Sequence record: KP085586
Length of the DNA: 50,109 nucleotides
Source of the DNA: Shigella phage pSf-2
Direction: 5' to 3' (one strand)
Numbering within the stretch: position 1 is the stretch's first letter; each line of letters starts with the position of its first letter. The position numbers and the translations under genes are program-made. This document shows, piece after piece, positions 12,222 through 48,251 of the stretch. Under the pieces are notes generated by a model. That model was not told where the DNA came from. It made no database searches and was given only the letters and a program-made list of their open reading frames with translations.

Positions 12222-12277
12222 CTTAACTTCTCCTGATTGGTGTATGAGGTGCATTATAACACCTCATTAATTATTTG

Positions 12278-12295
12278 TTTAGCTATTTGTGCCGT
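12278..12295 (-). promoter_or_regulatory. degenerate copy of 18-bp dyad motif upstream of TATAAT box for Erf-like gene
   Basis: 14/18 match; minus strand has tataat about 21 nt downstream inside an 8-bp inverted repeat. Confidence 0.3.
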
Positions 12296-13360
12296 TTACT
12301 TATTTTGGTAACGCACCCATGATGGCGTTTCAAGTTCGATCTCGCTTGCGTCGCCAGCGTACCCAGGCCAAACATCCATTTCAGAGCAAGCCTTGTAAGT
12401 GTGGACTACGCTAATGTACTGGTTACGACCGATCCTGATTTGCTCCATAGTCATACGGTAAGCCAGTGCGATATAAGGCTCTTTTTTCTCCTGCGCAAGC
12501 AATCGAACTACGATCGGAATATCTTCCGGGAAGTTTCCTTCAAAAGCGCCAGCCTGGATTGCGCGACGTAGCAGGTCATGCTGCAATGCCATCTTCAGGT
12601 AATAGCCGTGATTGTATGCCAGTCTCGGGAACTCTAACGGGTTGGCGCTCATCGTAGTTTTGAAATCTGTGATAATCAGTGCTTCCGGGAAAATTACGTC
12701 TTCAAATACCGGATCACCATTCTCATCATAACCAGTCAGTACACGACCTGGTACATTCTCTTTGTAGTCCAGATGATCTAGTCGAACCTTAACCTTGACG
12801 CCGGATATTTCACCGAAGATTGAGATTTCACGCTGCGCTGTTTCGCTGTTGATGCACGCTTCATGATCGGGGTTCTGTTCAAGTATAGCTCTCATCTTCA
12901 TGCAGGCGTCGTATTTATCAGCGTCGACGAGTTTCTTTCCTTCAGCGCGCGCCTCAGCTTCTGCGATCAGTTCAATCAGGTATTGAACGTTAAGGTCTTC
13001 GCCACAATCAACCATCATTTTGATGAGGTCCGGGTACTGCTTACCGGATGTACCTTTCAGGCCAAAAGATTTTAATTTTGCTGCCAGCGCTGCCTGAGAA
13101 GTAATGAGATCTTTAAACTCTGCCGGAGCCGGACAACGCGCATACGATGCAGTAAACAGATCTCGGCTCTCAAAGTTGGTGTGCGACTGAGTGCCAAACT
13201 CCAGCGCTTTAGTCGTCTCGTTCTTCTTGAATCGCCAGTTAGCCGGGCAAGTCTGATAAATTTCTGCAAGGCTCGAACCGCTTACATACTCTGCCGCCCA
13301 ACCTTCGTTGCTATGATACTCGTCATTAGAAAGCTGACTTGATGTGAATACTTGGAACAT
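12296..13360 (-). CDS. PD-(D/E)XK family exonuclease (recombination exonuclease)
   Basis: VRLDHLD and IITDFKTT motifs; first gene of recombination operon. Confidence 0.55.
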   Translation of the reverse strand: MFQVFTSSQLSNDEYHSNEGWAAEYVSGSSLAEIYQTCPANWRFKKNETTKALEFGTQSHTNFESRDLFTASYARCPAPAEFKDLITSQAALAAKLKSFGLKGTSGKQYPDLIKMMVDCGEDLNVQYLIELIAEAEARAEGKKLVDADKYDACMKMRAILEQNPDHEACINSETAQREISIFGEISGVKVKVRLDHLDYKENVPGRVLTGYDENGDPVFEDVIFPEALIITDFKTTMSANPLEFPRLAYNHGYYLKMALQHDLLRRAIQAGAFEGNFPEDIPIVVRLLAQEKKEPYIALAYRMTMEQIRIGRNQYISVVHTYKACSEMDVWPGYAGDASEIELETPSWVRYQNK

Positions 13361-13391
13361 TGCGTTTATCTCCTTCGTTTACGATGAATCC

Positions 13392-13419
13392 ATTATAGCC
13401 ATTAACAGCGTTTAGTCAA
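13392..13419 (-). promoter_or_regulatory. sigma70-like promoter (TTGACT-16-TATAAT) for recombination operon
   Basis: Near-consensus hexamers 31 nt upstream of ATG 13360. Confidence 0.5.
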
Positions 13420-13639
13420 TCGGATACATGTAATTGGTGTGTAATAGCGTGTCTATATCGCTCAAGTTACAACCAGCATTAACGGAATCAATGGCTTAAG
13501 TCTATTTTTATGTGATGTCTACTGTGTAATACTTGTAACCGCTTTTTCTTAGAAATACAGGGATAGCTACAAGTAGAATCCATATTGATTAAATTTTGAA
13601 CATATATGATAGAAATTTGACGAATCAATCAAATCACCA

Positions 13640-13810
13640 GTTACACGATAGACAACTGTTACACAACAATAATTATATATATAAAGCTAAAATTAAATAT
13701 TATCTATCTATATATATTATATATAGTTTTTATCATATCCCTCTGCGGTCGGGTAGGGTGGATTTTGTAACACCCGTTCCGGTTACAAAAATAGACACCT
13801 GTTACACGAA
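13640..13810. repeat. AT-rich divergent control region with direct repeats TAGACAnCTGTTACAC (x2) and inverted repeat TTTTGTAAC-N10-GTTACAAAA
   Basis: Repeats at about 13644-13660 and 13790-13806; palindrome at about 13765-13792; (TA)n tract 13700-13725. Confidence 0.45.
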
Positions 13811-13828
13811 AAAATTGTAATCGCACTA

Positions 13829-13857
13829 TTGCAATAAAAGTAAATGCGACATACAAT
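13829..13857 (+). promoter_or_regulatory. sigma70-like promoter (TTGCAA-17-TACAAT) for lipoprotein gene
   Basis: Hexamers with 17-bp spacer, 29 nt before ATG 13887. Confidence 0.45.
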
Positions 13858-13886
13858 GCAATCACACTAACGACGAGGACATACAA

Positions 13887-14117
13887 ATGAAAAAGTTAAT
13901 CACCATTATCACCGCTGCATTCATCCTGACTGGTTGTGCTCAGAATCTTAAAAATGGCGACTGCGTTACTTACGCGTACGGCTCTTGCATGATGCGATTC
14001 GTTGATGGTAAAAAGGTTCCGGCTGGCGAAATTGACATGCGATTCAAAGGTCTGTCATCCGACGACGATCAGGGTAACTTTAGCGGCAAGGTATCAATCA
14101 AAACTAAAGAGTGGTAA
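13887..14117 (+). CDS. small lipoprotein, Cor-like superinfection-exclusion candidate
   Basis: Signal peptide with lipobox LTGC; 76 aa; lies next to J gene on opposite strand as cor does in FhuA-dependent phages. Confidence 0.55.
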   Translation: MKKLITIITAAFILTGCAQNLKNGDCVTYAYGSCMMRFVDGKKVPAGEIDMRFKGLSSDDDQGNFSGKVSIKTKEW

Positions 14118-14119
14118 TT

Positions 14120-15102: not shown

Positions 15103-18100
15103 TTACCAGACACCAACAACCACTCGACCACCGTTAGGTAGGTTAACCGTGATCCCGTTATTGTTTATCTGAACTGTGTTATTTGTTCCGTTAAATGCAA
15201 ACTCTCCGTTATTTGCGTAAATTCTACCCCTCACTGTTGCATTCATGAATGAAGCGTCGCCATTCTTGTTTATGGCCCATCCATTATTCCCATCCCAATT
15301 GTTAGATTGAATCCAGTTTCCAATCATGGCATTAGTAATAAATCCATCCTTGATGATCGCGCTACTTAAAATAACCTGACCATTCTCAACAACAAAAGGA
15401 TATTGAGTCTGACCATTCATTCCTGTCATGATGGCAAATCGTGACGCCTCGAATAAGATTTGCGCCTTAACCACAGCGCCTGAACCAATCAGAGACATAG
15501 CCATACCAGCACTGTATTCTTGGCCGTTATACTTCAGACCGAGCTTGACTCCGTACATTGCACCAGTCGAATCCGCATTGCTCCACGAATCAAGTTTTTG
15601 AGAAAGTGCCGCCTCATTATTCCCAAGCCTCGCGCTTAATGACAAGTCAGCTTGCGTTCTCGCCTCAGTCTCGTTTGCTATAGCCTCTCTGATATCAGTC
15701 AAACTTGCCTGAATATCATCACCAATCTCTGCCCTGAGTTGGTCAATTTCACGCGATAGCGCTCCGGTTTCAGTTGCGATAACTTCACGCAATTCGCTAT
15801 TGCTTGCGCTAATCTGATCACCAAAACTTGCCCTTAACTGCTCAACTGCTGTTACTCGCGCCTCAGTCTCATCAGCAATTAGCTTCAGTGATTTGGTGTA
15901 CTCTGCTTTTCGTTTTCCGTTCTCCTTCTTCATGTAGATCGCGTCTTTGTCATTAGCTAGAGCGTTCTCAATTGCTGCCTCTGCGTTCGCTGCGTTCTGC
16001 GCCGCGTTGTCGGTTGCGTTATCAACAAGCCACTCGTAACCCGGCGAGTTTTCGATATCGACAGAAATCTCTCCAATGATATCGTCAACGTTTGTTGATG
16101 CCATGCCTCTGACAAAATCAGTCCACTGAGACGCGTTACCGATCCTGTCAACCGTCCTTACCCGATACCACACAATATTCCCTCCCGGCATCGGTGAGTG
16201 ATAATACTCATGCTGCGGATACGGAATCAAAGAAAGCAAACTTGCGTTATCCACTGTTCCATCCGGTGACTGCTGCAACTCCGTATAGGCCGTATCTCCA
16301 GAACCATCAGAGAACCCCCATTTTGTACGGATACCAAAAACAACATCATCCGTAGCTGTAAGGTTAATCGGTCGGCCCGGTTCACCCTGTTTACCCGTCA
16401 ACGTTGCCGCGACGATATTTGACCAGCCTGAAGTTGTGCCAGAACCAGCGACGGAGCGCACGCGAACCTGATAGTTGCCAGCGTAAATCCCTTCAACATA
16501 AACCTCCTTGTTTGCCGTCTGCGGGACGTTCTGCCAGTTGCCGTTATCCTTTCGCCACTGGACGTCATAGAAAACTGCGTACGGTACTTTATCCCAGCTA
16601 ACAATCATCGTTTCTACGCTCATCCCCTGGACGATTCGTGACTCTGAGGACACTTGCACGTTTTCCGGTCTAGGGATCTGATCTGGTTCAACGATGCTCG
16701 TCGGTCGGTCGTCGATATTAACTCCGTAATCAATCTCATCGTACTTGTTAGGATCGTACTCCACCGCCGTTATTTTGTAGGTAAATTCCTCATCATCATC
16801 GCCCTTGTCGATTTTTGTCACGACGTACTGCTGTAACGCAATGTCGGTGCGGTCGATAGCGAATACCGTGTTAGGCTTCACAGGAAAGCCAAAGCCAATG
16901 TTAACCTCTATAGTCTTACCATCCGCACTAACACTTGATATTGTGCGCTTCACGGGCTTGCCATCTGGCTTATTTACGATAATAAAGTCACCCGCGCGTG
17001 CATCCACCCGGAACGGCAAGAAAATCTGACTACCGGATACTTCGAGCAAGCGCCCTGATAGGTTCATCGTCAAGTTACTTGACCAGAAGTTATCAGCTAT
17101 TGCCACAACATCTCCGATTGTCGGGATCATACCCTCAAGTCCGGTAGCGAAGTTTACCGTAGTGCTGCGGAGGTTAGTTTTCAGAATCCATCTCCCGCGT
17201 CGGTTGGCCTCGCTTCGACGTGTGCAGCCGATCGCTGTAATGCTCGTTACGTTGTTCCCGAACCGTAGAGTAGCCTCACGATCGAATACTGGCTCAACGT
17301 CCTGCTGATACATGTTTTGCTCGTCGTCAAACATCACATTACACGTCGTGTACATGCTCTTTTCGCTTGCAAACGTGTAGGAGAAGTCACCATTAACCAC
17401 GTTGTCGTTAGTGAAGATGTACGCAGGCTCACGCGGCCTATCGATGATTACCGAAATGCTTTCGCCATTCCAAAAGCTCATACCTCGAAAGATTGAGCAA
17501 ATATCTCGAATAACCTTGTAAGCGTCAGTCTGAGACTGGATTATCACGTCGCAAAGGTATCGAGGTTCCGTCCCGCCCTTCCCATCAGGAACCATCTGAT
17601 CGCAATATTGCGCAGCCTCGTAGAGCGCCCATTTATCGACAGCGATACCAAGCTCTTTCTGATCCAAGCCGTAACGCTGATTAATCATCAGGTCATAAAG
17701 AACCCACGCAGGATTATTCGTCCATGCTTTTTTGAAAGTGCCATCCCAATTGCCGTTGTATGTTCGCGATTCTGGGTCGTAGTTCGACGGAACGCTTACA
17801 ATCTTCCAGCGCTTACGAATTGAGATCGTAGGTAACTGGTTTGGGAACATCTTCGAATCGAACTCTACGAAAAGAAGACCAGTCAGAGGATATCGGAATT
17901 TGGCATCAATGACCTCGGCATAGCTTCTTACCTGGATTGCATCAACGACATTCGAGTCATTGGAATCAGGCGTCTTTCGAACAACTCTGAATATTACCTG
18001 ATTGTTGAAGTTAGGCAGGTTTACGCGACGGCTTCGATCATAACCTGACATTGTTTTACCTTCGATTACGTCAGTAAGAACAGTCTCAAACGAACCGCCA

Positions 18101-18552: not shown

Positions 18553-18598
18553 GATGTTTACCTTTTTGTGCTATTTATCTGTGGACTCATTATACAGG

Positions 18599-18626
18599 CG
18601 AAAAAAAACCCGCGCAAGGCGGGTTA
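18599..18626 (-). terminator. intra-operon terminator/attenuator between I-like and J-like genes
   Basis: acccgc-gcaag-gcgggt hairpin followed on minus strand by T8; same stem-loop as at 20788. Confidence 0.5.
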
Positions 18627-18629
18627 ATT

Positions 18630-19229
18630 TTAACTCATATCCTCGGCATAAGAACCTGCTGAGAAAGTTGCGCCACCTCCGGCGCGATATCCATACGGGA
18701 CCGGGAGAGGGTATCCCGCCGCCGTCGTATTGACAGCACCGCCGAACGCGTACGAAGGTTTATTCTTGCTTGATTGAACTTCAAAGTTTGCGCCACCCGG
18801 CTGCGGTGAAATCATCTGCATTACGCCGCCCAGCACCATAGCGCCGCCCATCATAAACAGAGACGAGGACATTGTGCCCATTAAAGCCAGAGACGCGCCG
18901 CCAGTATAGAATGCTGCAACCATTATTGCCGCGCCCAATACAACCTGGAATAGACCTCCCGTCTTAGAACCAGTGGGGATCGGTACGATTCTTATCTCTT
19001 TCGCGCACTTGAATTTTTCCTCTTCATGGTGTCCCACGTTAACGCCATCCACAAATATTGCAAACTTGCTACGTGATCCGACTTCACTCTGCATGTATTC
19101 TTTAAACCCGTCCACCTGACTGGATAGCGCACGGATAGCTTCCGGGTAAGAGTCAACAGCAAATCGGTGAAAGACGCCAAAGCGCCTTCCAAGTGAACCT
19201 GATAATTTGATTACTTTTACATCATTCAT
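18630..19229 (-). CDS. tail assembly protein (lambda I-like)
   Basis: 199 aa between K-like and J-like genes; Gly-rich hydrophobic C-terminus. Confidence 0.7.
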   Translation of the reverse strand: MNDVKVIKLSGSLGRRFGVFHRFAVDSYPEAIRALSSQVDGFKEYMQSEVGSRSKFAIFVDGVNVGHHEEEKFKCAKEIRIVPIPTGSKTGGLFQVVLGAAIMVAAFYTGGASLALMGTMSSSLFMMGGAMVLGGVMQMISPQPGGANFEVQSSKNKPSYAFGGAVNTTAAGYPLPVPYGYRAGGGATFSAGSYAEDMS

Positions 19230-19993
19230 AATTTGAGATCCTTATGGCGAACAATTAAAACAGTGTGTTCCTGATACCAGCCTGAATAAATATCACGTCG
19301 CGACAGCTTACCGAAGGCGTGATGCAAGATCTGATTATCACCCAGGTAAATCCCTGCGTGATTCCATACCGGAACATTTTGCCCTATTTGCATGATTACC
19401 ATATCACCAAATGAAGGCTGATTCTGATCTGGAATCTCAACGAATCCATCTTGCTTGTAATAATCCTGATAGAGATTTATTCCATACTCCGGTTTCCACC
19501 ATTCAAAATTCAATCGCCGATCGCGTAATTCTACGCCGTGCTCTTTGTGCCACGCCATAACAAGACCGTAACAGTCGAATGATCCTAATGACCACGGACG
19601 ACCAATCAGAGGTAATTTCTCCGGCTTCACAAATCGCATATCTCCTTCCGGCACGCTAACAATAATCCAGGTAACTTCCATCTCGTTGCACATGCACGTA
19701 TCGTGAGCGCTTGGTAGAGTTGTAGCCCCATCTCCGGTGTGGCTGTGAACAATTGCGATCGTAGTTGATTCCGAATCGTCCTCAATACATGCGTATTGCA
19801 CTGCGTCCATCATGAAGTGATTTTCAGGATCACGGTGTACATTATCAACGCGATGGTATTTTTGCACGCGGCCCTTTTGGGTGACTACCCCGCAGCATTC
19901 GCGGGGGTATTCTTCCTGAGCGTGAGTCATAATTTCAAGTTTAATTTTTGCACTAATCATTGATTTTTCCTCTGTAGTGAAGCGACAGCGCAA
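19226..19993 (-). CDS. tail assembly protein (lambda K-like; MPN/JAB plus NlpC/P60-like domains)
   Basis: HSHTG metal-binding motif and Cys/His residues; position after L-like gene. Confidence 0.8.
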   Translation of the reverse strand: MRCRFTTEEKSMISAKIKLEIMTHAQEEYPRECCGVVTQKGRVQKYHRVDNVHRDPENHFMMDAVQYACIEDDSESTTIAIVHSHTGDGATTLPSAHDTCMCNEMEVTWIIVSVPEGDMRFVKPEKLPLIGRPWSLGSFDCYGLVMAWHKEHGVELRDRRLNFEWWKPEYGINLYQDYYKQDGFVEIPDQNQPSFGDMVIMQIGQNVPVWNHAGIYLGDNQILHHAFGKLSRRDIYSGWYQEHTVLIVRHKDLKL

Positions 19994-20739: not shown

Positions 20740-20779
20740 TTATTTTTCCTCTTGTTTACCTGCAACCATTCTACAGCTA

Positions 20780-20810
20780 CAAAAAAACCCGCGCAAGGCG
20801 GGCTTTTGTT
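20780..20810. terminator. terminator-like hairpin between M-like and L-like genes
   Basis: cccgc-gcaag-gcggg stem-loop flanked by A7 and T-run; near-identical to hairpin at 18608. Confidence 0.5.
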
Positions 20811-20818
20811 ATATGGCG

Positions 20819-36780: not shown

Positions 36781-36986
36781 GCCTCATCTCCTTCTTCTTC
36801 GATCGGGGTAAAAAACTGAGTGTTCACTGCCGGGTTATAATAAACTCCGTCGTCATAGTCGCTTTCTTTCACTTCAATAAAAGCGTCACAACCGTCATGC
36901 ATGAAATCACCATTATCAGTATGAACCAGTTCGAATACTTCAGAAGTTTTAGTGCAAGTGAAAAACTTATCAGTTGATACCATCAT
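36777..36986 (-). CDS. hypothetical acidic protein
   Basis: 69-codon ORF, first gene after motif/promoter at 37045. Confidence 0.5.
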   Translation of the reverse strand: MMVSTDKFFTCTKTSEVFELVHTDNGDFMHDGCDAFIEVKESDYDDGVYYNPAVNTQFFTPIEEEGDEA

Positions 36987-37044
36987 TTCGATTTTCTCTC
37001 TTCGTTGTCGATGAGGTAACTATATCAAATCACCCCACCGACGT

Positions 37045-37062
37045 TTTAGCAATTCGTGCTAT
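37045..37062 (-). promoter_or_regulatory. 18-bp dyad motif copy (tttagcaattcgtgctat)
   Basis: Overlaps TAG stop of kinase gene; minus strand: 22 nt then tatagt (37019-37024). Confidence 0.7.
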
Positions 37063-38273: not shown

Positions 38274-38476
38274 TATGCTTTCTCCTGTACGCGAATGATT
38301 TTGATGGTTAATTCTTCTTCAACAATTTTGTAGCCGGATGATTCAAATTTACTCTCACGAGTCTGATTGCATGAATCAATAACGACCTGGCTATTCTGAA
38401 TATCGTCAGCCATGCCGATTAGCATGCTAACGATCTGCGTTCTCGTTTCGTTGCTCATTCCGGTAATAGTTTTCAT
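38273..38476 (-). CDS. hypothetical protein (start moved to internal ATG)
   Basis: acgaggaag SD before ATG 38476; track start 38518 lies inside promoter hairpin. Confidence 0.45.
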   Translation of the reverse strand: MKTITGMSNETRTQIVSMLIGMADDIQNSQVVIDSCNQTRESKFESSGYKIVEEELTIKIIRVQEKA

Positions 38477-38532
38477 GATCGCTTCCTCGTTTGTTGGCGT
38501 AGGGGAATCATAGCGCATTCCCCTTGATAGGT

Positions 38533-38550
38533 TTTAGCAATTCGTGCTAT
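38533..38550 (-). promoter_or_regulatory. 18-bp dyad motif copy (tttagcaattcgtgctat)
   Basis: Minus strand: 22 nt then tatgat inside 8-bp inverted repeat aggggaat/attcccct. Confidence 0.7.
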
Positions 38551-39823: not shown

Positions 39824-40013
39824 CTTTCTTTACCTCGAATGTCACGTTCCAGAATTTATTGCCGCATGAATGATAGATTACGTCCTGAGACGTGAGTTCG
39901 TGCAATGCGTGCCCGATAATCTCCATTCTGTCGTTCGGTGTCAATCCGCGAAGTGATTCGCGTATGCGTGATGCCTTGTCGTAAATCTGCCACTGAGTGA
40001 GTCGTGTAGCCAT
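39807..40013 (-). CDS. hypothetical protein (start moved to internal ATG)
   Basis: Track start 40055 lies inside promoter hairpin; ATG 40013 follows aaccaatcagag leader. Confidence 0.4.
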   Translation of the reverse strand: MATRLTQWQIYDKASRIRESLRGLTPNDRMEIIGHALHELTSQDVIYHSCGNKFWNVTFEVKKDEQNS

Positions 40014-40079
40014 AGCTGATTTCTCTGATTGGTTGCCGTGCTTCAATAAGGCCACTATATCAAATGGCCTTGCGGAAGG

Positions 40080-40097
40080 TTTAGCAATTCGTGCTAT
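40080..40097 (-). promoter_or_regulatory. 18-bp dyad motif copy (tttagcaattcgtgctat)
   Basis: Minus strand: 22 nt then tatagt inside inverted repeat aaggcca/tggcctt. Confidence 0.7.
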
Positions 40098-40243: not shown

Positions 40244-40749
40244 TATTTCACCTCATAGCGTACAAGTGTTCCGCGCTTAATGCTGATTTCACCTGATACA
40301 GTCTTGTTCTTAAAGCCGCCGTAATGCAACAGGAGAATCACTACGTCATCGTGTACCTCAATAGTTTTAGGCGTTGCGGTAATGTCGGCCCAGGATTCGC
40401 TATCAAGCTGGACACCCTTTAGCGTCGCGCTCAATGGCATGTTCTCGATCTGAGTGCACTGTAGCATTGGCTTGATTTCTGGCTTTGCAGCTTTGAATAT
40501 TGAGCCTTCAATCTTCCAGCTATCATACAAGCTGTAAGCATTCTGATTGCCACTCATAATGTAGTGGTAGTCCTTATTTGGTGAATTTTCTTTATTCACT
40601 TCGTTATGTCTGGCTATAAACCATTCCAGCTTAAGCTGCGACACCTCATCGGTGGCCCACGTACCCTTATCTTCATCGGTGAACGTAATTTCACCACATC
40701 CCAGACTGATAAATTTGATCGGGAATTTGACGTCTTCTAATTTCAACAT
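40243..40749 (-). CDS. hypothetical protein
   Basis: 168-codon ORF, aagagga SD, first gene after promoter at 40806. Confidence 0.55.
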   Translation of the reverse strand: MLKLEDVKFPIKFISLGCGEITFTDEDKGTWATDEVSQLKLEWFIARHNEVNKENSPNKDYHYIMSGNQNAYSLYDSWKIEGSIFKAAKPEIKPMLQCTQIENMPLSATLKGVQLDSESWADITATPKTIEVHDDVVILLLHYGGFKNKTVSGEISIKRGTLVRYEVK

Positions 40750-40805
40750 AACTCTTTCCTCTTAGTTGTTGGCGTGGGGATTATACCAGTCAGGACAAAT
40801 CCCCT

Positions 40806-40823
40806 TTTAACAATTCGTGCTTA
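40806..40823 (-). promoter_or_regulatory. 18-bp dyad motif copy, variant (tttaacaattcgtgctta)
   Basis: Minus strand: 22 nt then consensus tataat inside inverted repeat ggggatt/aatcccc. Confidence 0.7.
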
Positions 40824-41309
40824 GTAAACTAACTCGCACTCAATATCGAACGGCTCGGCGTTACAGTGGAAGAAGCAAAGTGCCTCTTTATTCATCCCGC
40901 CGACAAATCCAACGGCTCGCAACTGCTCATCGTTAACGTATGCCAGGTTGCCAGTAATTCTTTCAAAGTCCACAATAACTGGGAACGTGCGGTTCTCATA
41001 ACCTGGTCGCATCGGGTAGCCGCCATTGTTGAGAAGTCGAACCTTGCGCGGCTTAGGATTTGCTTGGACTTCCCATCCGAAGAAGAACATCGTTCCGTCA
41101 TTCTCGTTAAGGTCAGCCGGACCAAATACAGGGCTAACCGAAAGTCCATAGTCCAGATCGTACACTCCAGCTTTAACCAGATCGTCAACCTTAACGCGGT
41201 AGCCTCCAGTGCTGGAATCGCATTTAACCGCATCAACCACGATAGGGTCTGCTTCCAGGTTTCGGGTAAAGCCTTTGTAACCGCCAGTGCAAAGTAATTT
41301 GATTTTCAT
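40821..41309 (-). CDS. hypothetical protein
   Basis: 162-codon ORF downstream of promoter at 41367. Confidence 0.55.
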   Translation of the reverse strand: MKIKLLCTGGYKGFTRNLEADPIVVDAVKCDSSTGGYRVKVDDLVKAGVYDLDYGLSVSPVFGPADLNENDGTMFFFGWEVQANPKPRKVRLLNNGGYPMRPGYENRTFPVIVDFERITGNLAYVNDEQLRAVGFVGGMNKEALCFFHCNAEPFDIECELVY

Positions 41310-41366
41310 GTTTGTATCCTCGTTCGTTGTCGATGGGGTTACTATATCGCAACCCCGATATTGTGT

Positions 41367-41384
41367 TTTAACAAAAAGTGCTAT
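41367..41384 (-). promoter_or_regulatory. 18-bp dyad motif copy (tttaacaaaaagtgctat)
   Basis: Overlaps TAG stop of 41381..41572; minus strand: 22 nt then tatagt. Confidence 0.7.
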
Positions 41385-42091: not shown

Positions 42092-42322
42092 TTACTCCTC
42101 AATTAAAGTGCTGATATCGTCAAAGCCCTGGAGGTCTGCGTTCCAGACTAGGAAGTTTGCAAGGTTTTCGCACCACACCCATTTCCCGTTATCCTCCATG
42201 TATGTTTTGTGCCCACCCGGTACGGCACTGACAGCAAATCGCTTGTTGTCGCGAGTGATGAAAATAGCAAAGCGGTTGTGGCTGGTTGAGTCGATGGCTT
42301 GCTGGTTCTTGACGATTGACAT
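42092..42322 (-). CDS. hypothetical protein
   Basis: 76-codon ORF; accaatcagagg leader before ATG 42322. Confidence 0.5.
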   Translation of the reverse strand: MSIVKNQQAIDSTSHNRFAIFITRDNKRFAVSAVPGGHKTYMEDNGKWVWCENLANFLVWNADLQGFDDISTLIEE

Positions 42323-42386
42323 GGTGATTCCTCTGATTGGTATCTCGTTTCGATGGGGTAACTATATCAAGATACCCCGATTCGTT

Positions 42387-42404
42387 TTTAACAATTCGTG
42401 CTAT
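42387..42404 (-). promoter_or_regulatory. 18-bp dyad motif copy (tttaacaattcgtgctat)
   Basis: Overlaps TAG stop of 42401..42871; minus strand: 22 nt then tatagt flanked by ggggta/tacccc. Confidence 0.7.
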
Positions 42405-42871
42405 TTGGTGAGATATTTCACACAGCTTCCGGCAGTCTCATTCCAGCCATCCTCAAAGAATACGCCATAGCAAGTTGTCGAACGCTGGCGAACCTTCGAC
42501 ACAGTGCGCCACACTTTACGGCCCGAGTAACCAGTCAGCACACGCATCCCCGGCAACAACTCACCAGCCTTTCTCACCTCAATGGTCACATCAGAACCAA
42601 GCTCGAAAGACTCAAGGAAAACCGGGTCAATCATATCACACATGCGGCGCTCTTCATGCCCATCGTGCCACTCGCCACCATCTCTTAATTTAACATGCTC
42701 AATAAATCGACTAAGTTTTTCAGTGATCGAGTCGCAGGCGTAGGAGTTGATATCGATAACCGTGTAGCGACTGTACATATGCCAGTGCGATCCGGTTTTA
42801 TGCTCGAACGCGAATAATGACATAGCGCCGTCAACATTATCTTTAGCAAGAAATACGGTAATGGTCGCCAT
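42401..42871 (-). CDS. hypothetical protein
   Basis: 156-codon ORF, agagg SD. Confidence 0.55.
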   Translation of the reverse strand: MATITVFLAKDNVDGAMSLFAFEHKTGSHWHMYSRYTVIDINSYACDSITEKLSRFIEHVKLRDGGEWHDGHEERRMCDMIDPVFLESFELGSDVTIEVRKAGELLPGMRVLTGYSGRKVWRTVSKVRQRSTTCYGVFFEDGWNETAGSCVKYLTK

Positions 42872-42873: not shown

Positions 42874-43068
42874 TTAAGCCTCTGCAAAGTAAGTGTTAAA
42901 GCCTTTGAGTTTGTAGTCGCTACCTACGCGCACAACATTCCAGGTAAGGCCAGAGTGATACGCCACCATATCTTCCAGGTCGATTGTGATTTCAGTTCCT
43001 TTCTTGAACAGACCCTTTTCATGGGTTGAGTCCCGCTGAACAACCACTACGTCAATTTGCGTTTCCAT
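42874..43068 (-). CDS. hypothetical protein (start moved to internal ATG)
   Basis: agagga SD before ATG 43068; track start 43134 lies inside the motif. Confidence 0.45.
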   Translation of the reverse strand: METQIDVVVVQRDSTHEKGLFKKGTEITIDLEDMVAYHSGLTWNVVRVGSDYKLKGFNTYFAEA

Positions 43069-43126
43069 CTTTGTTTCCTCTGTATCGTTTCGATGATAAG
43101 ATAATACCCGATCCGCTAGACCGGGC

Positions 43127-43144
43127 TTTAACAAAAAGTGCTAT
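43127..43144 (-). promoter_or_regulatory. 18-bp dyad motif copy (tttaacaaaaagtgctat)
   Basis: Overlaps TAG stop of 43141..43461; minus strand: 22 nt then tattat. Confidence 0.7.
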
Positions 43145-43461
43145 TCTACGGTAAACTCGACGTCGGTGATTTTCCACCCCTCAGTCTTGGGAGTGGTGAG
43201 GTTCTCAATTTCAAGAATGTTACCCTCAACCTTGAGGAATTTTAGATCTTGCCCACTTATTTCACGCAACTTACCTACGAGCATTCCAGCGTTTAGTCTT
43301 ACGACGCTCTCATCGAATCCTTTTGTGAAGTATCCTGGGCCAACGGTATCAAGGTTTATCTTGATTGACCTCTTACCAATCAGTGCGTCAGCTATCTTCT
43401 TGATGTTTTCCTTCTGCTTACCAATTACCTTACGCCCTTCTTCTGTTAACGGTTTAAACAT
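43141..43461 (-). CDS. hypothetical protein
   Basis: 106-codon ORF. Confidence 0.5.
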   Translation of the reverse strand: MFKPLTEEGRKVIGKQKENIKKIADALIGKRSIKINLDTVGPGYFTKGFDESVVRLNAGMLVGKLREISGQDLKFLKVEGNILEIENLTTPKTEGWKITDVEFTVE

Positions 43462-43473: not shown

Positions 43474-43989
43474 TCACAGTCCGCACTTTTCGATATGCGC
43501 TTTCATCTGGCGAACCAGGTCGCGCACGGTGCTTACAGCCACGTCACCTTTCTCAAGGTCATCAATATCAGGAACAAACGAGTCCAGGCAGTCGGACAGG
43601 CTAACTTTTTTCCGGCTACGGCGCTTCTTCACCGGAACCTCTTCATCAGTAACGGTAACGGTTATCATTGTGATTGCCGACTCATTCCGGCCCACCTTCA
43701 CCTTTGCCATCTTGCCGTACTTGCAGAAGTGCCGGGTAATAATCGGAGTGATGAAAGCAGACTTAAATCGCTTCTCCACCTCCTTCCCGTTCGAGGTCAA
43801 CCATGTTGATACACCTCGCTCAATCTCTTCCTCTGTAATATCCCGATCTCGGAAGTAAAATTTTACCGCCTCTCTCGCCATATCATCAGCCAAGAAAGAG
43901 AACTCGGTCATGCCTTTGTCGCGATACATTGCGTCGCAGGTTAGGCGAATCATGTCGGTGATTTTTAATTCCTGACTGGTATTGCTCAT
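43474..43989 (-). CDS. hypothetical protein, first gene of leftward early operon
   Basis: 171-codon ORF, basic patch KKRRSRKK. Confidence 0.55.
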   Translation of the reverse strand: MSNTSQELKITDMIRLTCDAMYRDKGMTEFSFLADDMAREAVKFYFRDRDITEEEIERGVSTWLTSNGKEVEKRFKSAFITPIITRHFCKYGKMAKVKVGRNESAITMITVTVTDEEVPVKKRRSRKKVSLSDCLDSFVPDIDDLEKGDVAVSTVRDLVRQMKAHIEKCGL

Positions 43990-44129: not shown

Positions 44130-44390
44130 CTATAGAAATATATGGCTCTCAAAAAAAGTACTGTATATATAAACACTCAGATAGAAATATGCCAACAGTA
44201 CGCTAGACAATGTAAGACAGCTATACACAACTATTACAATATAATTATCTATATATATAAATAAAAAAAACACTATATATATTATATATATACATATATC
44301 TATATGTATATTGTGAGGCGTCACAGTGTGTATTTTTGTCACAAGTGCGATTCTAGACAAATATTACAGTCGTGACAAGTTAAAGTGTAA
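44130..44390. repeat. AT-rich tract with (TA)n/ATATA runs and TAGACA / GTCACAAG repeats; candidate origin or early control region
   Basis: Long ATATATA-type tracts at 44160-44320; repeated ctagacaa, gtcacaag/gtgacaag words. Confidence 0.45.
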
Positions 44391-44393: not shown

Positions 44394-44411
44394 ATAGCAC
44401 TTTTTGCTAAA
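44394..44411 (+). promoter_or_regulatory. 18-bp dyad motif copy (atagcactttttgctaaa)
   Basis: First rightward copy; no clear -10 at 22 bp. Confidence 0.5.
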
Positions 44412-44598
44412 AATGGAGATGAATGCCAGGCGAACCGGGTAACACCAATTCCTCCCTCTCACAATCATTGCATTCTCAGCAACAAATCAACCAACTGTTG
44501 CACACCATGCAATAATCACGTTTCATCATTCGTAATCAATAACAATCAAGATTATTCCACCTATTCCAGTATTGATTGAATAATGAGCAATTATTGGA

Positions 44599-44616
44599 AT
44601 AGCATTTTTTGCTAAC
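44599..44616 (+). promoter_or_regulatory. 18-bp dyad motif copy, variant (atagcattttttgctaac)
   Basis: tatgat about 23 nt downstream, then caaccaatcaggag leader to ATG 44675. Confidence 0.6.
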
Positions 44617-44674
44617 GACTTAGCAAGGCCGATTGGGTATGATTCATCACATCAACCAATCAGGAGCAATCGAC

Positions 44675-44818
44675 ATGACAACTGCAAACATCAACGCAAC
44701 AATTAATCGTTACGAACACATCTATCGCGTAGCGCTGTTCTCTGACATGGCGTTAGCTAACAAGGCGAAGTTAATAATCGACAAACTGAATCACTACAAA
44801 AAGGAGATCGAAAAATGA
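44675..44818 (+). CDS. hypothetical small protein (start moved to internal ATG)
   Basis: aggag SD 8 nt before ATG 44675; track start 44633. Confidence 0.4.
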   Translation: MTTANINATINRYEHIYRVALFSDMALANKAKLIIDKLNHYKKEIEK

Positions 44819-45519
44819 AGTTGATTTGGTCGCTATTCGACGGTTCCGGCCTGGCAGGTCATGAACTGGCAAAGCAAGGTCATAAGGTGATGTGCTTCAA
44901 CTTTGACGGGGCAGATCACGGAGATTACGCAAAGTACAATGCCCGGGTAGAGCATCCGAACATTGAGTATGTGAACGTCTTCATTGATGAGAAGTTCGAA
45001 CGTGATGCGATCGCTGGTGTGTATGGCAAACCTGATTTCATCATGGCTTTCCCACCATGCACTGACCTAGCTGTTAGTGGTGCTCGCCATTTTGCCAGCA
45101 AGCGTGAACGTGATCCGTTATTCCATGAGAAGGCTGTTGCCACCGCTCGGATTGCTGCTAATATTGGCGAAGCTATGGGCGTGACGTACATCATTGAGAA
45201 TCCGGTTAGCGTCCTGTCATCTGCCTGGAGAAAACCAGATCACTCCTTTAATCCCTGGGAGTATGGCGGCTATCTTCCTGAGAATGACTCACATCCCTGG
45301 TTCCCGATGTATATTGCGCCGCGCGATGCTTACCCTAAGAAGACGTGTCTTTGGACCTCGGACGATTTTGTCATGCCGGAGAGAAATCCAGTAAGCCTGC
45401 CTGACGGGTACTCTGCACAGCAAAACAAGCTGGGCGGCAAGTCTGCCAAAACTAAGCTGATACGATCCCTGTCGCCGCGTGGATTTTTCAAAGCGATCGC
45501 AAATAGCACTTTTTGTTAA
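44815..45519 (+). CDS. minimal C5-cytosine methyltransferase-like protein
   Basis: Motif I-like LFDGSGLAG, PC motif FPPCTDLAVSG, ENV-like IIENPVS with canonical spacing; only 234 aa; aaggag SD. Confidence 0.5.
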   Translation: MKLIWSLFDGSGLAGHELAKQGHKVMCFNFDGADHGDYAKYNARVEHPNIEYVNVFIDEKFERDAIAGVYGKPDFIMAFPPCTDLAVSGARHFASKRERDPLFHEKAVATARIAANIGEAMGVTYIIENPVSVLSSAWRKPDHSFNPWEYGGYLPENDSHPWFPMYIAPRDAYPKKTCLWTSDDFVMPERNPVSLPDGYSAQQNKLGGKSAKTKLIRSLSPRGFFKAIANSTFC

Positions 45520-45520
45520 A
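45503..45520 (+). promoter_or_regulatory. 18-bp dyad motif copy (atagcactttttgttaaa)
   Basis: Encodes C-terminal ...NSTFC* of upstream gene; 22 nt then cataat. Confidence 0.7.
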
Positions 45521-45579
45521 ACTCGATCGGTGTGATTTGGCATAATTACCTCATCGAAACGAGATTGAGGAAAAACAAA

Positions 45580-45765
45580 ATGGCACGTCGCATCACTAAA
45601 GACCTTAAAGTCCTGAACAAAGAAAACGTAGTTAAAATTCTGGTTATTTGGGGTTACAACGAAGAATCAGCAAAGCATAAGGTAGAAGCGGGTTACGACC
45701 TGGCTGTCAAGGCAATGCCTAACGACGACGCCAAAGGCATTGTAAACTATGTAGCATTCTTTTAA
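45580..45765 (+). CDS. hypothetical small protein (start moved to internal ATG)
   Basis: gagga SD before ATG 45580. Confidence 0.45.
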   Translation: MARRITKDLKVLNKENVVKILVIWGYNEESAKHKVEAGYDLAVKAMPNDDAKGIVNYVAFF

Positions 45766-45966: not shown

Positions 45967-45984
45967 ATAGCACGAATTGCTAAA
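45967..45984 (+). promoter_or_regulatory. 18-bp dyad motif copy (atagcacgaattgctaaa)
   Basis: Starts right after TAA of upstream gene; 22 nt then cattat; leader shared with copy at 5207. Confidence 0.7.
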
Positions 45985-46048
45985 CATGCCGGAATGGAAT
46001 CTGGCATTATTACTTCATCGAAACGAAACATCAAAACAGGAATCGGAA

Positions 46049-46231
46049 ATGAAAAAGTTAACATCAAACACAAAATATGAAATTATTGACGGTGAAGCTA
46101 TTATTTATGCTCGCGCGAAAGGATCAAATAAACTAACAGCCGCATTCAAATGCCACCCAGCGACAATTGATCTCATCAAAGAGTATGGATTCAAGTCGGC
46201 TATAAGCAAGTCGTTATTATGCAAGGCTTAA
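46049..46231 (+). CDS. hypothetical small protein (start moved to internal ATG)
   Basis: aggaa SD before ATG 46049; track start 45977 lies inside motif. Confidence 0.45.
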   Translation: MKKLTSNTKYEIIDGEAIIYARAKGSNKLTAAFKCHPATIDLIKEYGFKSAISKSLLCKA

Positions 46232-46300: not shown

Positions 46301-46318
46301 ATAGCACGAATTGCTAAA
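46301..46318 (+). promoter_or_regulatory. 18-bp dyad motif copy (atagcacgaattgctaaa)
   Basis: 22 nt (with hairpin ccccga/tcgggg) then tatagt; caaccaatcaggag leader to ATG 46377. Confidence 0.7.
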
Positions 46319-46376
46319 CGCCCCGAAGGGAATCGGGGTATAGTAAACAACATCAACCAATCAGGAGAATCGCCAG

Positions 46377-46607
46377 ATGGCAATCAAACATCCCGGATTA
46401 AAGAAAGCAATCCAGCGAGCCAATGACGAGGGATTTATTGTATATCGAACACATTACGGTCACATGGGTGGACTTAAAGAGCATCATACAAAGGTTGAGC
46501 TTGTGGACTTATGGGAGGATTACGATACATTCCAGTACATCGCCACGTCTGACGTAGAGGCGCAAGTGAAATACATCAATGACACTATTGATAGCTTCAG
46601 AGGGTAA
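46377..46607 (+). CDS. hypothetical protein
   Basis: 76-codon ORF with aggag SD. Confidence 0.5.
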   Translation: MAIKHPGLKKAIQRANDEGFIVYRTHYGHMGGLKEHHTKVELVDLWEDYDTFQYIATSDVEAQVKYINDTIDSFRG

Positions 46608-46611: not shown

Positions 46612-46983
46612 ATGTTTAAGCAGTTCACAGATCTGGACTTCTCAGCCAGCACGGCAATCAAGACTGACGAGAAAGAAAGCGTAGCGATCGAGAACATCGC
46701 GCGCAAGATTTACAACAAGCAAGAGAAGGCCGTTAGAGCCGCTCTGAGCGCTTATTACGGTGTAAGTGATGCAATGGAGTGTGTTAGCAGGGTAACGCGC
46801 GTAGTGGACAGTTCTGGCGCGCCTCGTTTCGTAGATGACGATACTGGCGAGACAATCATTCAACTTAACAATCCATCCATGCGCACAGAGTTAGGAAACG
46901 TCGCATTGTGGGGCGTGGCTAACTACTCAATCACCGTCAATTCCTGCATTGCGCACCGTGTTAAGGAGGCATTGTATGAGTGA
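46612..46983 (+). CDS. hypothetical protein (start moved to internal ATG)
   Basis: ATG 46612 five nt after upstream TAA; track start 46579. Confidence 0.5.
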   Translation: MFKQFTDLDFSASTAIKTDEKESVAIENIARKIYNKQEKAVRAALSAYYGVSDAMECVSRVTRVVDSSGAPRFVDDDTGETIIQLNNPSMRTELGNVALWGVANYSITVNSCIAHRVKEALYE

Positions 46984-47176
46984 TAATATTTACCGCGTAG
47001 TGGCGATCTCACGCAAGACGCAAAAGAGCGTAGTTGCCTACATGGGAAATAGCGCCATTGAGGCAACAGACGACTTCGAGCTACTGAAGAATAACGAAGG
47101 ATTTATGAACACGTTCCGCGTTCGACTTGAGCGTCTCGAACCTGTTATAATTGATGAAGCGCGAAAGCTATCCTGA
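46976..47176 (+). CDS. hypothetical small protein (start moved to internal ATG)
   Basis: aaggagg SD before ATG 46976; overlaps upstream TGA. Confidence 0.45.
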   Translation: MSDNIYRVVAISRKTQKSVVAYMGNSAIEATDDFELLKNNEGFMNTFRVRLERLEPVIIDEARKLS

Positions 47177-47192
47177 CTGGTTAGGGGGAATA

Positions 47193-47513
47193 ATGAACCA
47201 CACTTATAAAATCACAACGAAATCACCGAAGATTAACGGAAGCACGGTCGCGGCATTGAATAACGCGGCAGCAATCCACGAAAAAAACATCATGGAGCGC
47301 GTGAAGGCGGCAGTAGGCCGATTCTATGGAATCAACGCTGATATTGCCGACAGCAAGCGACTGTTCAAATACGTGCCAGGTCATCCATATAGCCGGATGA
47401 TCGATATTAAGCATGATAAAGAACTGGTTCGAATCGGATCGCTTAGCATTGACGAGTTCGACCATAGCATTAACCTTGTGACGGCGTATCAAACATGGGA
47501 CGGTAAAAAATGA
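47193..47513 (+). CDS. hypothetical protein (start moved to internal ATG)
   Basis: aggggg SD before ATG 47193. Confidence 0.5.
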   Translation: MNHTYKITTKSPKINGSTVAALNNAAAIHEKNIMERVKAAVGRFYGINADIADSKRLFKYVPGHPYSRMIDIKHDKELVRIGSLSIDEFDHSINLVTAYQTWDGKK

Positions 47514-47653
47514 TTTATATTCACACTTTCTATACTGGCAAATTTAACAGCGTAAAAAATGTTCGCGTTTACGATAGCCACCAAAAAGCAATGATGCAGA
47601 AAGTAGTTCTAGGTGGAACAATCAAAGAGTGTAAAGTAATTTCCGAGTACTGA
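47510..47653 (+). CDS. hypothetical small protein (47 aa, not in ORF track)
   Basis: ATGA overlap with upstream stop; TGA merges into next motif copy. Confidence 0.3.
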   Translation: MIYIHTFYTGKFNSVKNVRVYDSHQKAMMQKVVLGGTIKECKVISEY

Positions 47654-47670
47654 TAGCACTAATTGCTAAA
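47653..47670 (+). promoter_or_regulatory. 18-bp dyad motif copy (atagcactaattgctaaa)
   Basis: -10-like gtatat/tatatt at 22-23 nt; 60 nt upstream of ATG 47731. Confidence 0.6.
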
Positions 47671-47730
47671 GACAATAAATAGGGAGTAAGGTATATTACT
47701 CCAACACCAAACGAAATAAAGGAATTAAAA

Positions 47731-47955
47731 ATGAGTATTAAAGTTGAGAATATCATCAAGCATCTGAACGCGAAAGGACGTGTAGTTATCAAAATGGATA
47801 AGTCTTCCGGTTTTGTTTCAATGACGGTAACTAAGGCTCGGAACGGTAATAACGTTATTGGCAGCACACCAGGATCGCGCTTAGTAAATGCAACAGATGC
47901 GGATGTTCGCGCAACGCTTGAGGCTAACTCGATTTACATTAATTCATGGGGCTAA
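47731..47955 (+). CDS. hypothetical small protein
   Basis: 74-codon ORF with aaggaa SD. Confidence 0.5.
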   Translation: MSIKVENIIKHLNAKGRVVIKMDKSSGFVSMTVTKARNGNNVIGSTPGSRLVNATDADVRATLEANSIYINSWG

Positions 47956-47958
47956 TTA

Positions 47959-48171
47959 ATGGAACAGGATAATTTCTGGACTCGTTATTTTGCCGCGCTC
48001 GATGCCGGGCTTAGTGCGGAATGGTGTATCAAGGTTGCATATAAAGAAATTACGCTTGACGACGCACTAGGGAATATGGATATGGACGCAGAAAGTGAAT
48101 ATAATCCCGACTTCGAGATGCCCGGCGATGATATTGGTGATAATGACGACGACGATTATATTCCCTGGTAA
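47959..48171 (+). CDS. small highly acidic protein (DNA-mimic candidate)
   Basis: C-terminal third about 50 percent Asp/Glu (DFEMPGDDIGDNDDDDYIPW). Confidence 0.45.
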   Translation: MEQDNFWTRYFAALDAGLSAEWCIKVAYKEITLDDALGNMDMDAESEYNPDFEMPGDDIGDNDDDDYIPW

Positions 48172-48189
48172 ATAGCACGATTTGTTAAT
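48172..48189 (+). promoter_or_regulatory. 18-bp dyad motif copy, variant (atagcacgatttgttaat)
   Basis: Starts right after TAA of upstream gene; 22 nt then taaagt; aaccaatcaggag leader. Confidence 0.6.
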
Positions 48190-48251
48190 ATTGCCGTAAG
48201 GTCATTTGATAAAGTGGCCTTATTCAAGATAACCAATCAGGAGTGAACGCA

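Follow-up and report, generated by a model that had tools for sequence, protein, structure and literature searches.

The genome of Shigella phage pSf-2 (sequence record KP085586) raises the question why two short strings recur between promoter-like sequences and start codons. In a preliminary description of this 50,109-nt stretch, hereafter the window, the two strings, motif 1 (AACCAATCAGGAG) and motif 2 (TTACCYCATCGA(A/C)AACGA), were regarded as conserved leader elements. Repeat finding and pattern scans revealed that both are the downstream parts of a cassette of about 95 nt, which starts with a 20-bp box fitting the Escherichia coli marbox consensus (MarA/SoxS/Rob) at every specified position. 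We consider it likely, with a probability of roughly 0.7, that a single repeated promoter cassette, headed by a consensus class II marbox, underlies both leaders, which would be its transcribed ends.

Megablast identified the window as a T1-like siphovirus of the family Drexlerviridae, Tunavirus group, which is 89-94% identical to Shigella phage phiL and the ISF001, SH2, ADB-2 group. The two ends of the stretch are adjacent in the alignment with T1 (position 1 corresponds to T1 44720, position 50109 to T1 44721), therefore the window is a complete, circularly permuted genome. For comparison we used T1 (NC_005833), TLS, KP36 and Rtp, which represent four subfamilies or genera, and cassette statistics were pooled over the window and these four genomes (92 cassettes in the logo). 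All known hosts of the family belong to the Enterobacteriaceae.

The window contains 19 copies of the cassette, located before the early genes (36-50 kb) and the DNA-metabolism genes (2-12.3 kb). The same architecture was found in T1, TLS, KP36 and Rtp, with 17-20 copies in each. The order of the elements is box, 18 bp, -10 hexamer, C-rich discriminator, an A at the predicted transcription start (+1), 5′ untranslated region (5′UTR), Shine-Dalgarno (SD) sequence and ATG; there is no -35 hexamer. The box reads ATAGCAC(GAA/TTT)TTG(C/T)TAAAAC, and the logo of the 92 cassettes gives aATAGCAC(T/G)WWTTG(C/T)TAAA(a)(c). The -10 hexamer (TATAGT, CATAAT or TATTAT) lies 17-19 bp from the box, in 81 of the 92 cassettes at exactly 18 bp. 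When only boxes with the exact consensus were counted, 67 of 85 had a [T/C]AnnnT hexamer exactly 18 bp downstream, compared with 0-9 at any other spacing between 8 and 32. The second and sixth bases of the hexamer (A at -11 and T at -7) are invariant (92/92), and 76 cassettes (83%) have G at -14. The discriminator is typically TACCCC; the predicted +1 is A in 74 of 92 and is followed by TCGAAAC(G)A. The predicted 5′UTRs, 21-34 nt long, are A/C-rich and G/U-poor, and usually begin with AUCGAAACGA or AUCAAC. From the first base of the box to the ATG there are 71-84 nt in the 19 window cassettes. Two other assignments of the promoter were rejected. As a -35 hexamer, the TTGCTA of the box would be 22 bp from the -10, and no -10-like hexamer follows it at 17 bp; the GG-N10-GC register of a sigma-54 promoter was not found when the logo was inspected.

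Into this framework the two leader motifs could be placed base by base. Motif 1 stands, in gene sense, before the seven ATGs that the preliminary description had named: 12221(-), 24721(-), 40013(-), 42322(-), 44675(+), 46377(+) and 48252(+). Allowing up to two mismatches, AACCAATCAGGAG has 11 matches in the window against 1.23 expected, a number that none of 100 shuffled sequences reached. The copies are CACCAATCAGGAG at 12230-12242(-), 8 nt before its ATG, AACCAATCAGAGA at 40022-40034(-), TACCAATCAGAGG at 42330-42342(-), and AACCAATCAGGAG itself at 44654-44666(+), 46355-46367(+) and 48231-48243(+), which are 8, 9 and 8 nt from the ATG, respectively. The seventh copy, AACCAATCAGGAG at 24729-24741(-), 7 nt before the ATG of the tail-chaperone gene, has no promoter; a reversed marbox lies directly upstream of it, and orthologous copies are present in T1, KP36 and TLS. 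AGGAG, or AGAGG/CAGAG, is found 6-9 nt 5′ of all seven ATGs. The gap between GGAG/GAGG and the ATG is thus 6-9 nt, mostly 7-8, rather than the 7-11 nt given earlier, which had been measured in a slightly different way. The exact 13-mer also occurs in T1 (2 copies), TLS (1), KP36 (4) and Rtp (1), each copy 7-8 nt 5′ of an annotated ATG. The position of motif 1 is tied to the ATG; its distance to the -10, by contrast, ranges from 11 to 22 nt. Motif 1 is an SD sequence (GGAG) fused to ACCAATCAG.

Motif 2 lies 3′ of -10 boxes, as had been claimed, and every copy begins at the last base of the -10 hexamer. TTACCYCATCGAMAACGA matches at 37002-37019(-), where the last T of the -10 and the discriminator TACCTC are followed by the predicted +1 of ATCGACAACGA, and at 41324-41341(-), where TAACCCC precedes ATCGACAACGA. 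Variants one base shorter (TTACCCCATCGAAACGA and similar) were located at 42345-42361(-), 43085-43100(-), 45546-45562(+) and 46010-46026(+), in which ATCGAAACGA follows TTACCCC, CTTATC, TTACCTC and TTACTTC, respectively. Motif 2 is the promoter discriminator joined to the first ten transcribed bases, and its TTACCCC is also the 3′ arm of a hairpin in the sense RNA. The interpretation of the two strings as leaders was therefore right in part. Both are situated between a -10 box and a start codon, that is, in 5′ leader sequence, but they make up just the downstream third of a larger, family-wide cassette, and the part of motif 1 outside the SD sequence (ACCAATC) is not specific to leaders.

The marbox has the non-palindromic consensus 5′-GCAnnWWnTGnnAAA-3′, and in class II promoters it is in forward orientation and overlaps the -35 region (PMC12052159); the class II site of micF is at about -41 (PMC8811837). 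Exact matches to this consensus number 20 in the window, 20 in T1, 19 in TLS and 14 each in KP36 and Rtp, against about 1 in shuffled sequences (about 1.25 for the window). A longer consensus for MarA, SoxS and Rob, AYnGCACnnWnnRYYAAAYn, reportedly goes back to Martin and co-workers in 1999; 21 boxes of the window agree with it within one mismatch. In the phage boxes GCAC is distal and AAA proximal to the -10, which is the forward, -35-overlapping arrangement. In E. coli K-12 the micF site ACAGCACTGAATGTCAAAAC is followed by 18 bp, TAGAAT, 7 nt and then the annotated 5′ end of micF; at fumC the gap is 18-19 bp, and the mar box is ATGCCACGTTTTGCTAAATC. Like the cassettes, the class II promoters of micF and fumC have a forward 20-bp marbox over the -35, centred near -42, and no good -35 hexamer. 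In orientation, -35 overlap and -10 register the cassette is thus identical to the structurally characterised micF promoter. The phage cassettes differ from micF and fumC in forming a set of about 19 near-consensus copies on the genome of a virulent phage, each of them driving a phage gene, in boxes that are closer to the consensus and carry extra conserved bases, and in the hairpin of the upstream message; activator binding to them is a prediction.

The activator would have to come from the host. A tblastn search with MarA found no homologue in the five phage genomes (E >= 0.35), so that a phage-encoded protein of the AraC/MarA type was dropped as a candidate, and the regulator encoded at 7746-8198 has only a weak match to a Cro-type helix-turn-helix, below the curated Pfam cut-off. 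E. coli K-12, in turn, possesses marA.

The box itself has been seen before. A re-annotation of TLS describes a 21-nt direct repeat, aaATAGCACnnnTTGnTAAAA, which is oriented with transcription, lies about 76 nt upstream of start codons and is also found in T1, Rtp and Rogue1; its function was left open, with stoperators, enhancer sites or UP-like elements as suggestions (PMC11447400). The cassette box agrees with this repeat in consensus, orientation and distance, and the two are the same element. The authors found only three sigma-70 promoters because their search pattern was TTGACA-N15-19-TATAAT (PMC11447400). That work does not mention the resemblance to the marbox, the -10 at a constant 18 bp, the discriminator with the initial transcribed sequence or the leader motifs (PMC11447400). 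Taken as a class II marbox with a -10 at a fixed distance, the repeat locates about 19 promoters per genome, where almost none had been found before. Our search of the literature on the marbox and these phages, Drexlerviridae with SoxS included, did not turn up a paper making the link.

At the promoter most cassettes also encode a hairpin. Watson-Crick stems of at least 6 bp were found in 64 of the 92 cassettes, enclosing the -10 in 44 and lying between box and -10 in 20. When 5′ arms were swapped between cassettes, the share with stems of at least 6 bp fell from 49% to 9%. The internal non-canonical pairs of the stems are G.T in 20 cases and A.C in 1, and the mean folding z-score is -3.1. The loss upon arm swapping, the folding z-score and the preference of G.T over A.C indicate selection for complementarity in the sense strand, at the level of RNA. 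Since its 5′ arm precedes the predicted start of transcription, the hairpin can form only in transcripts that enter from the preceding gene. Directly after the 20 hairpins that end at the -10 come the T-rich -10 and the discriminator; a terminator scanner flagged two of the 20, and hairpins of this type are annotated as rho-independent terminators in T1 and KP36. The 44 hairpins enclosing the -10 have loops of 6-12 nt and no U tract; these may protect a 3′ end or cause a pause.

Taken together, the cassette would allow the phage to transcribe its early genes and those for DNA metabolism in many short units. Host sigma-70 RNA polymerase would start at promoters devoid of a -35 with the help of a monomeric activator of the MarA/SoxS/Rob type (RamA in Klebsiella) bound at about -42, as at micF, and the short unstructured leader would then permit efficient translation, the word in the UTR being placed so that its 3′ end supplies the SD sequence. 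The 18-bp spacer carries all, or the 5′ half, of the G+C-rich hairpin, which would act in the read-through RNA of the upstream gene, as a terminator if the T-rich -10 follows and otherwise as a 3′-end structure.

Several considerations weigh against this reading. Unstressed cells contain little MarA or SoxS, and their Rob is for the most part inactive; a virulent phage that relied on these proteins for its early genes would be unusual, and the extended -10 might suffice on its own. All +1 positions are predictions made from the -10. The -10-enclosing hairpins lack a U tract, and activation does not explain eight box copies, in the late region and before the primase gene, that are reversed or have no -10 at 18 bp. 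The account of motif 1 is incomplete, as it assigns no function to ACCARTCAG (see below). Finally, conservation beyond the marbox consensus (ATA at positions 1-3, TT at 11-12) and the partial palindrome TAGCA-N5-TGCTA mean that a dedicated phage protein could recognise the box.

This last point leads to an alternative that we regard as rather unlikely: the box would be the operator of a phage protein, for example the Cro-like regulator of 7746-8198, acting as repressor, 'stoperator' or activator, and its likeness to the marbox would be coincidence or mimicry. Besides the partial dyad and the surplus conservation, such a role would suit the copies that flank the regulator gene (7733 and 8182), while those that have no -10 or sit reversed in the spacer of a late promoter would fit repression; stoperator and enhancer roles are also among the proposals of the TLS authors (PMC11447400). 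The box is, however, not symmetric: 53 copies have C at position 14 and 36 have T, and C7 has T11 and not G as its mirror partner, which argues against a dimeric operator. Moreover, all specified marbox positions are matched at the spacing of micF, and an operator for shut-off needs neither a fixed 18-bp register with the -10 nor the absence of a -35. It is improbable, in our view, that AACCAATCAGGAG owes its conservation to control at the RNA level, as a translational enhancer or a factor-bound operator coordinating the translation of a gene set. The fixed spacing to the ATG with a variable distance from the -10 would be expected of such an element, the exact 13-mer is conserved in four subfamilies, and the leader copies have A at the variable position in 20 of 22 cases, compared with 55 to 55 for the intragenic copies. 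Yet the same 9-mer is equally common inside genes and in antisense, most cassette genes have other A/C-rich leaders (logo), and neither an Rfam family nor a conserved structure was found for the leaders. Extended pairing with 16S rRNA beyond the SD sequence was also discarded, since the best match of AACCAATC is a 7-mer at position 1019, which is within chance.

The leaders might also resemble each other through shared ancestry, as strings without a function of their own carried by mobile promoter-terminator modules that duplication and recombination have spread. The cassettes do mark exchange points: in the alignment of the window with T1, 10 of 30 ends of high-scoring segment pairs fall within cassettes, compared with 1.2 expected, two homology breakpoints (40029 and 44656) lie exactly inside ACCAATCAG, and identical cassettes precede unrelated genes in the two phages. 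The cassettes offer an explanation for the mosaic exchange of genes in the early regions. In this respect they resemble the PeSL elements of T4-type phages (PMC2839356, PMC4122927), composite terminator/promoter modules repeated between small early genes and located at gene-replacement boundaries between related phages; both the composite build and the boundary position were found for the cassettes. The likeness is architectural only, as the T1-family cassette belongs to another phage family, has a different sequence and adds a host-activator box and a conserved 5′UTR. As a sufficient cause of the similarity, common descent is very unlikely: the motifs are intact where their flanks are only 65-80% identical or cannot be aligned, and position-specific conservation (+1 A, discriminator, SD spacing) indicates selection. 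Module exchange is compatible with the marbox-headed promoter cassette and does not replace it.

The individual cassettes of the window are as follows, with the elements given in the direction of transcription. On the minus strand, cassette 2136-2213 (marbox 2213-2194, -10 TATAGT 2175-2170, predicted +1 2163, ATG 2138) has a terminator-type hairpin, GCCCGAA/TTCGGGT, before the -10, and the T1 hairpin orthologous to that of cassette 4123-4201 (marbox 4201-4182, TATAGT 4163-4158, predicted +1 4151, ATG 4125, long start 4140) is annotated as a terminator. The Dam methylase gene is preceded by cassette 5151-5224 (marbox 5224-5205, TGgCATTAT with the -10 at 5186-5181, predicted +1 5174, ATG 5153), a helicase gene by 7650-7733 (marbox 7733-7714, TATTAT 7695-7690, GTG 7652), and the Erf-like gene by 12219-12295 (marbox 12295-12276, 17 bp, TGtTATAAT 12258-12253, ATG 12221), where the hairpin ATGAGGTG/CACCTCAT surrounds the -10. 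In the early region the minus-strand cassettes begin with 36984-37062 (marbox 37062-37043, TGaTATAGT 37024-37019, predicted +1 37012, ATG 36986) and 38474-38550 (marbox 38550-38531, ATG 38476), whose TATGAT at 38512-38507 is in the loop of AGGGGAAT/ATTCCCCT and whose long start, 38518, is inside the -10. A -10 in a loop is likewise seen in 40011-40097 (marbox 40097-40078, TGaTATAGT 40059-40054 within AAGGCCA/TGGCCTT, predicted +1 40047, ATG 40013), 41307-41384 (marbox 41384-41365, TATAGT 41346-41341 within GGGGTT/AACCCC, predicted +1 41334, ATG 41309) and 42320-42404 (marbox 42404-42385, TGaTATAGT 42366-42361 within GGGGTA/TACCCC, predicted +1 42354, ATG 42322). The spacer of cassette 40747-40823 (marbox 40823-40804, TGgTATAAT 40785-40780, ATG 40749) contains CCTGACTGG, the complement of the dispersed word discussed below. 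Cassette 43066-43144 (marbox 43144-43125, TATTAT 43106-43101, ATG 43068) has a terminator-type hairpin at 43126-43106, and the long TTG start of its gene, 43134, is inside the marbox.

On the plus strand the series consists of 44599-44677 (marbox 44599-44618, 19 bp, TATGAT 44638-44643, ATG 44675), 45503-45582 (marbox 45503-45522, TGgCATAAT 45541-45546, predicted +1 45553, ATG 45580), 45967-46051 (marbox 45967-45986, terminator-type hairpin 45986-46007, TGgCATTAT 46005-46010, ATG 46049), 46301-46379 (marbox 46301-46320, hairpin GCCCCGA/TCGGGGT, TATAGT 46339-46344, ATG 46377), 47653-47733 (marbox 47653-47672, 19 bp, TATATT 47692-47697 in the loop of GGAGTAA/TTACTCC, ATG 47731) and 48172-48254 (marbox 48172-48191, TGaTAAAGT 48210-48215 in the loop of AAGGTCA/TGGCCTT with one G.U pair, predicted +1 48222, ATG 48252). 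The last cassette, 48672-48747 (marbox 48672-48691, TATCAT 48710-48715, ATG 48745), drives a helicase gene that runs off the end of the window. Start and end of the window both lie inside one helicase gene, the orthologue of T1 ST9, and the gene split in this way is absent from the mechanical list of open reading frames (ORFs).

The cassettes bear on the assignment of start codons. We scanned all ORFs in gene sense, taking as the long start the first ATG, GTG or TTG after a stop. The earlier claim that starts of the longest ORFs are too long in many early genes proved correct: downstream of the first possible start there is, in no fewer than 13 early or middle genes, an ATG preceded by a proper SD sequence. 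The pairs of long and short starts are 1869/1842, 4140/4125, 12254/12221, 38518/38476, 40055/40013, 41773/41755, 43134/43068, 44633/44675, 45532/45580, 45977/46049, 46579/46612, 46949/46976 and 48243/48252. In 8 of the 13 pairs the long start precedes the predicted start of transcription and falls within the marbox, the -10 box or the hairpin. The observation is trivial in so far as the ORF list had been built by the rule of the first start after a stop. The Erf-like homologues of TLS, KP36 and Rtp begin at the short-form start (12221). The Erf-like protein of T1, ST28 (NC_005833 31484-32164, 226 amino acids), has its annotated ATG inside a TATAATG -10 box, and its homologues in TLS, KP36 and Rtp align from a start 11 codons downstream; by this comparison the T1 RefSeq protein appears to be 11 codons too long. 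From the cassettes a rule can be derived by which start codons could be corrected in hundreds of Drexlerviridae genomes in the databases.

The core of motif 1 turned out to belong to a strong signal that goes beyond the promoter cassette. The window has 29 copies of the word ACCARTCAG, where 0.56 would be expected; none of 100 shuffled sequences had more than 4. Its two forms, ACCAGTCAG and ACCAATCAG, outnumber all other 9-mers in the window and in T1, and ACCAATCAG ranks first in TLS and KP36; CCAATCAG and CCAGTCAG are present in 6-23 copies each per genome, with about 1.5-2 expected. The 32 window copies of CCARTCAG, mostly inside genes, are distributed almost evenly over the strands (19 plus, 13 minus) and with respect to transcription (16 sense, 16 antisense). 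ACCARTCAG is found in all three codon phases in sense and in both stop-free phases in antisense, which rules out an origin in a peptide or in codon usage. At orthologous sites A and G interchange; the word persists where the aligned sequences are 65-76% identical, and every genome also has private copies. The leader copies form a special subset, always in sense and positioned so that ...CAGGAG supplies the SD sequence. Because the word is intragenic and in half of the cases antisense, an mRNA role alone cannot account for the conservation of the core of motif 1. ACCARTCAG, or more broadly CC-RR/GC-TCAG, appears instead to be a separate, family-wide word under selection at the level of DNA. The preferred middle dinucleotide depends on the lineage (AA in TLS; AA and AG, plus GC, in T1 and the window; GG in KP36, Rtp and a relative from IMG/VR), which points to a phage factor in co-evolution rather than to an invariant factor of the host.

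Among known systems, Chi (GCTGGTGG) and the stoperators of mycobacteriophage L5 are short non-palindromic words that are many-fold over-represented genome-wide, also inside genes, and ACCARTCAG shares these properties. It differs from Chi in sequence, in the variation of the preferred form between lineages (AA/AG, GG, GC) and in lacking the polarity of a Chi-like signal, being free of bias in strand and transcription. Identity with host Chi was rejected, since the window has a single copy of that site. An IHF site (WATCARNNNNTTR) was likewise rejected on inspection of the leader copies, which lack the TTR part and include an incompatible AGTCAG variant. The word may be bound by a phage DNA-binding protein, serve a phage helicase-nuclease as a Chi-like or self-marking signal, or act in priming. 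The spacing of the copies in the window showed no significant regularity (coefficient of variation 0.76, compared with 0.96 for random placement, P = 0.08), and our literature search on ACCARTCAG and the leader motifs yielded nothing relevant. In the IMG/VR scan outside the family the word was multi-copy only on Drexlerviridae-like contigs of about 50 kb, and single matches elsewhere were attributable to chance. A search based on the primase locus led to a distant relative (33% identity) without copies of the word or a marbox, and to a 20.9-kb locus, IMG/VR 3300048919_000084, whose primase is 63% identical and in which the word is mainly CCGGTCAG. In the latter a second word, TGGGACAAAT / ATTTGTCCC, is also among the most frequent 9-mers.

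Outside the leaders, the following copies are intragenic and antisense on the plus strand: ACCAGTCAG at 3598-3606, 11353-11361, 12731-12739, 17878-17886 (conserved in T1 and TLS) and 42530-42538, and ACCAATCAG at 5410-5418 (conserved in T1 and KP36), 7089-7097, 15484-15492, 19601-19609 (conserved in KP36 in an alignment of 66% identity) and 31409-31417. ACCAGTCAG is also antisense at 13926-13934(-), 21773-21781(+), where the aligned TLS site has ACCAATCAG, and 47173-47181(-). Intragenic sense copies are ACCAATCAG at 21344-21352(-) and ACCAGTCAG at 26807-26815(-), 32679-32687(-), 35598-35606(-), which is conserved in Rtp, 43972-43980(-) and 49204-49212(+). The ACCAGTCAG copy at 40785-40793(+) is non-coding and lies in the spacer of the 40823 cassette, on the opposite strand. 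The ACCAATCAG copy at 43375-43383(+) is antisense by gene block, as the local genes are on the minus strand, although it was scored against a longer plus-strand ORF in the sense/antisense count. In the large terminase gene ACCAGTCAG is present in antisense at 33860-33868(+), with A/G interchange across T1, TLS and KP36; the site is kept in this way at TLS 10098-10106, T1 9725-9733 and Rtp 7643-7651. The terL mRNA therefore contains a stretch almost perfectly complementary to the leader motif.

As a tentative view, which we hold to be less likely than not, about 20 early and middle promoters of these phages could be wired to the host regulators MarA/SoxS/Rob/RamA, so that expression would be tuned by the antibiotic, oxidative or bile-salt state of the cell. 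Separately, the genome would be marked by a lineage-specific CC-RR-TCAG word of 8-9 bases, in which a co-evolving phage protein would recognise a signal of an undescribed kind, for self, recombination, priming or nuclease control. If the reading of the box as a class II marbox holds, a large group of therapeutically used coliphages and Klebsiella phages would couple their early programme to the regulators of multidrug resistance (MarA, SoxS, Rob, RamA), with a bearing on phage-antibiotic combinations and on the behaviour of phages in the bile-rich gut.

Marbox copies were also found outside the cassettes. The copy at 3850-3869(-) has a weak -10 (TAGCAT) 18 bp downstream. No clear -10 accompanies the copy at 9256-9275(-), in the intergenic region between the primase and tail-fibre genes, and none at all the copy at 18555-18574(-), which ends 4 nt before ATG 18552 of a tail protein, or a marbox-like copy (ATAACAC...) at 35212-35231(-), 14 nt before the ATG of the small terminase (35197). 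At 24743-24762(+) the box is followed, after 18 bp, by TGaTACGAT (24781-24786), a predicted conserved antisense promoter toward the major-tail terminator. This candidate, 24743-24786(+), lies on the strand opposite the late genes and has a counterpart at T1 18850-18807(-) with TAAGAT as the -10; it points into the terminator and 3′ end of the major tail gene and could give a short antisense RNA.

Upstream of the major capsid gene, at 28453-28545(-), a reversed marbox (28508-28527(+)) makes up the spacer of a canonical-looking promoter, TTGACG-N16-TGcTATTAT, and a strong hairpin with T6 precedes the SD sequence. A protein binding to the box at this TTGACG-N16-TATTAT promoter would be expected to block it and not to activate it. 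The copy at 8182-8201(+) overlaps the 3′ end of the Cro-like regulator gene; in the segment 8182-8262(+) it is followed by a strong terminator, ACGCGTAG...CTACGCGT with T7, and then by the SD sequence and GTG (8260) of the primase gene, with no evident promoter between. The arrangement regulator-marbox-terminator-primase is conserved in T1, TLS, KP36 and Rtp; read-through or antitermination are possibilities for expression of the primase.

The segment 44130-44630 is the divergent region between the leftward and rightward blocks of early genes. It contains TATATATA-rich repeats at 44233-44299 and a marbox at 44394-44413(+), which has no -10 and is conserved in T1; a non-coding stretch of about 100 nt shared with T1 follows. 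The region may be an origin or encode a non-coding RNA. The late-region terminators at 18588-18632, 20767-20811, 24062-24085 and 35237-35281 share AAAAAAACCCGCGCAAGGCGGG and its flanks (repeat families D6 and D7) and are distinct from the early cassettes.

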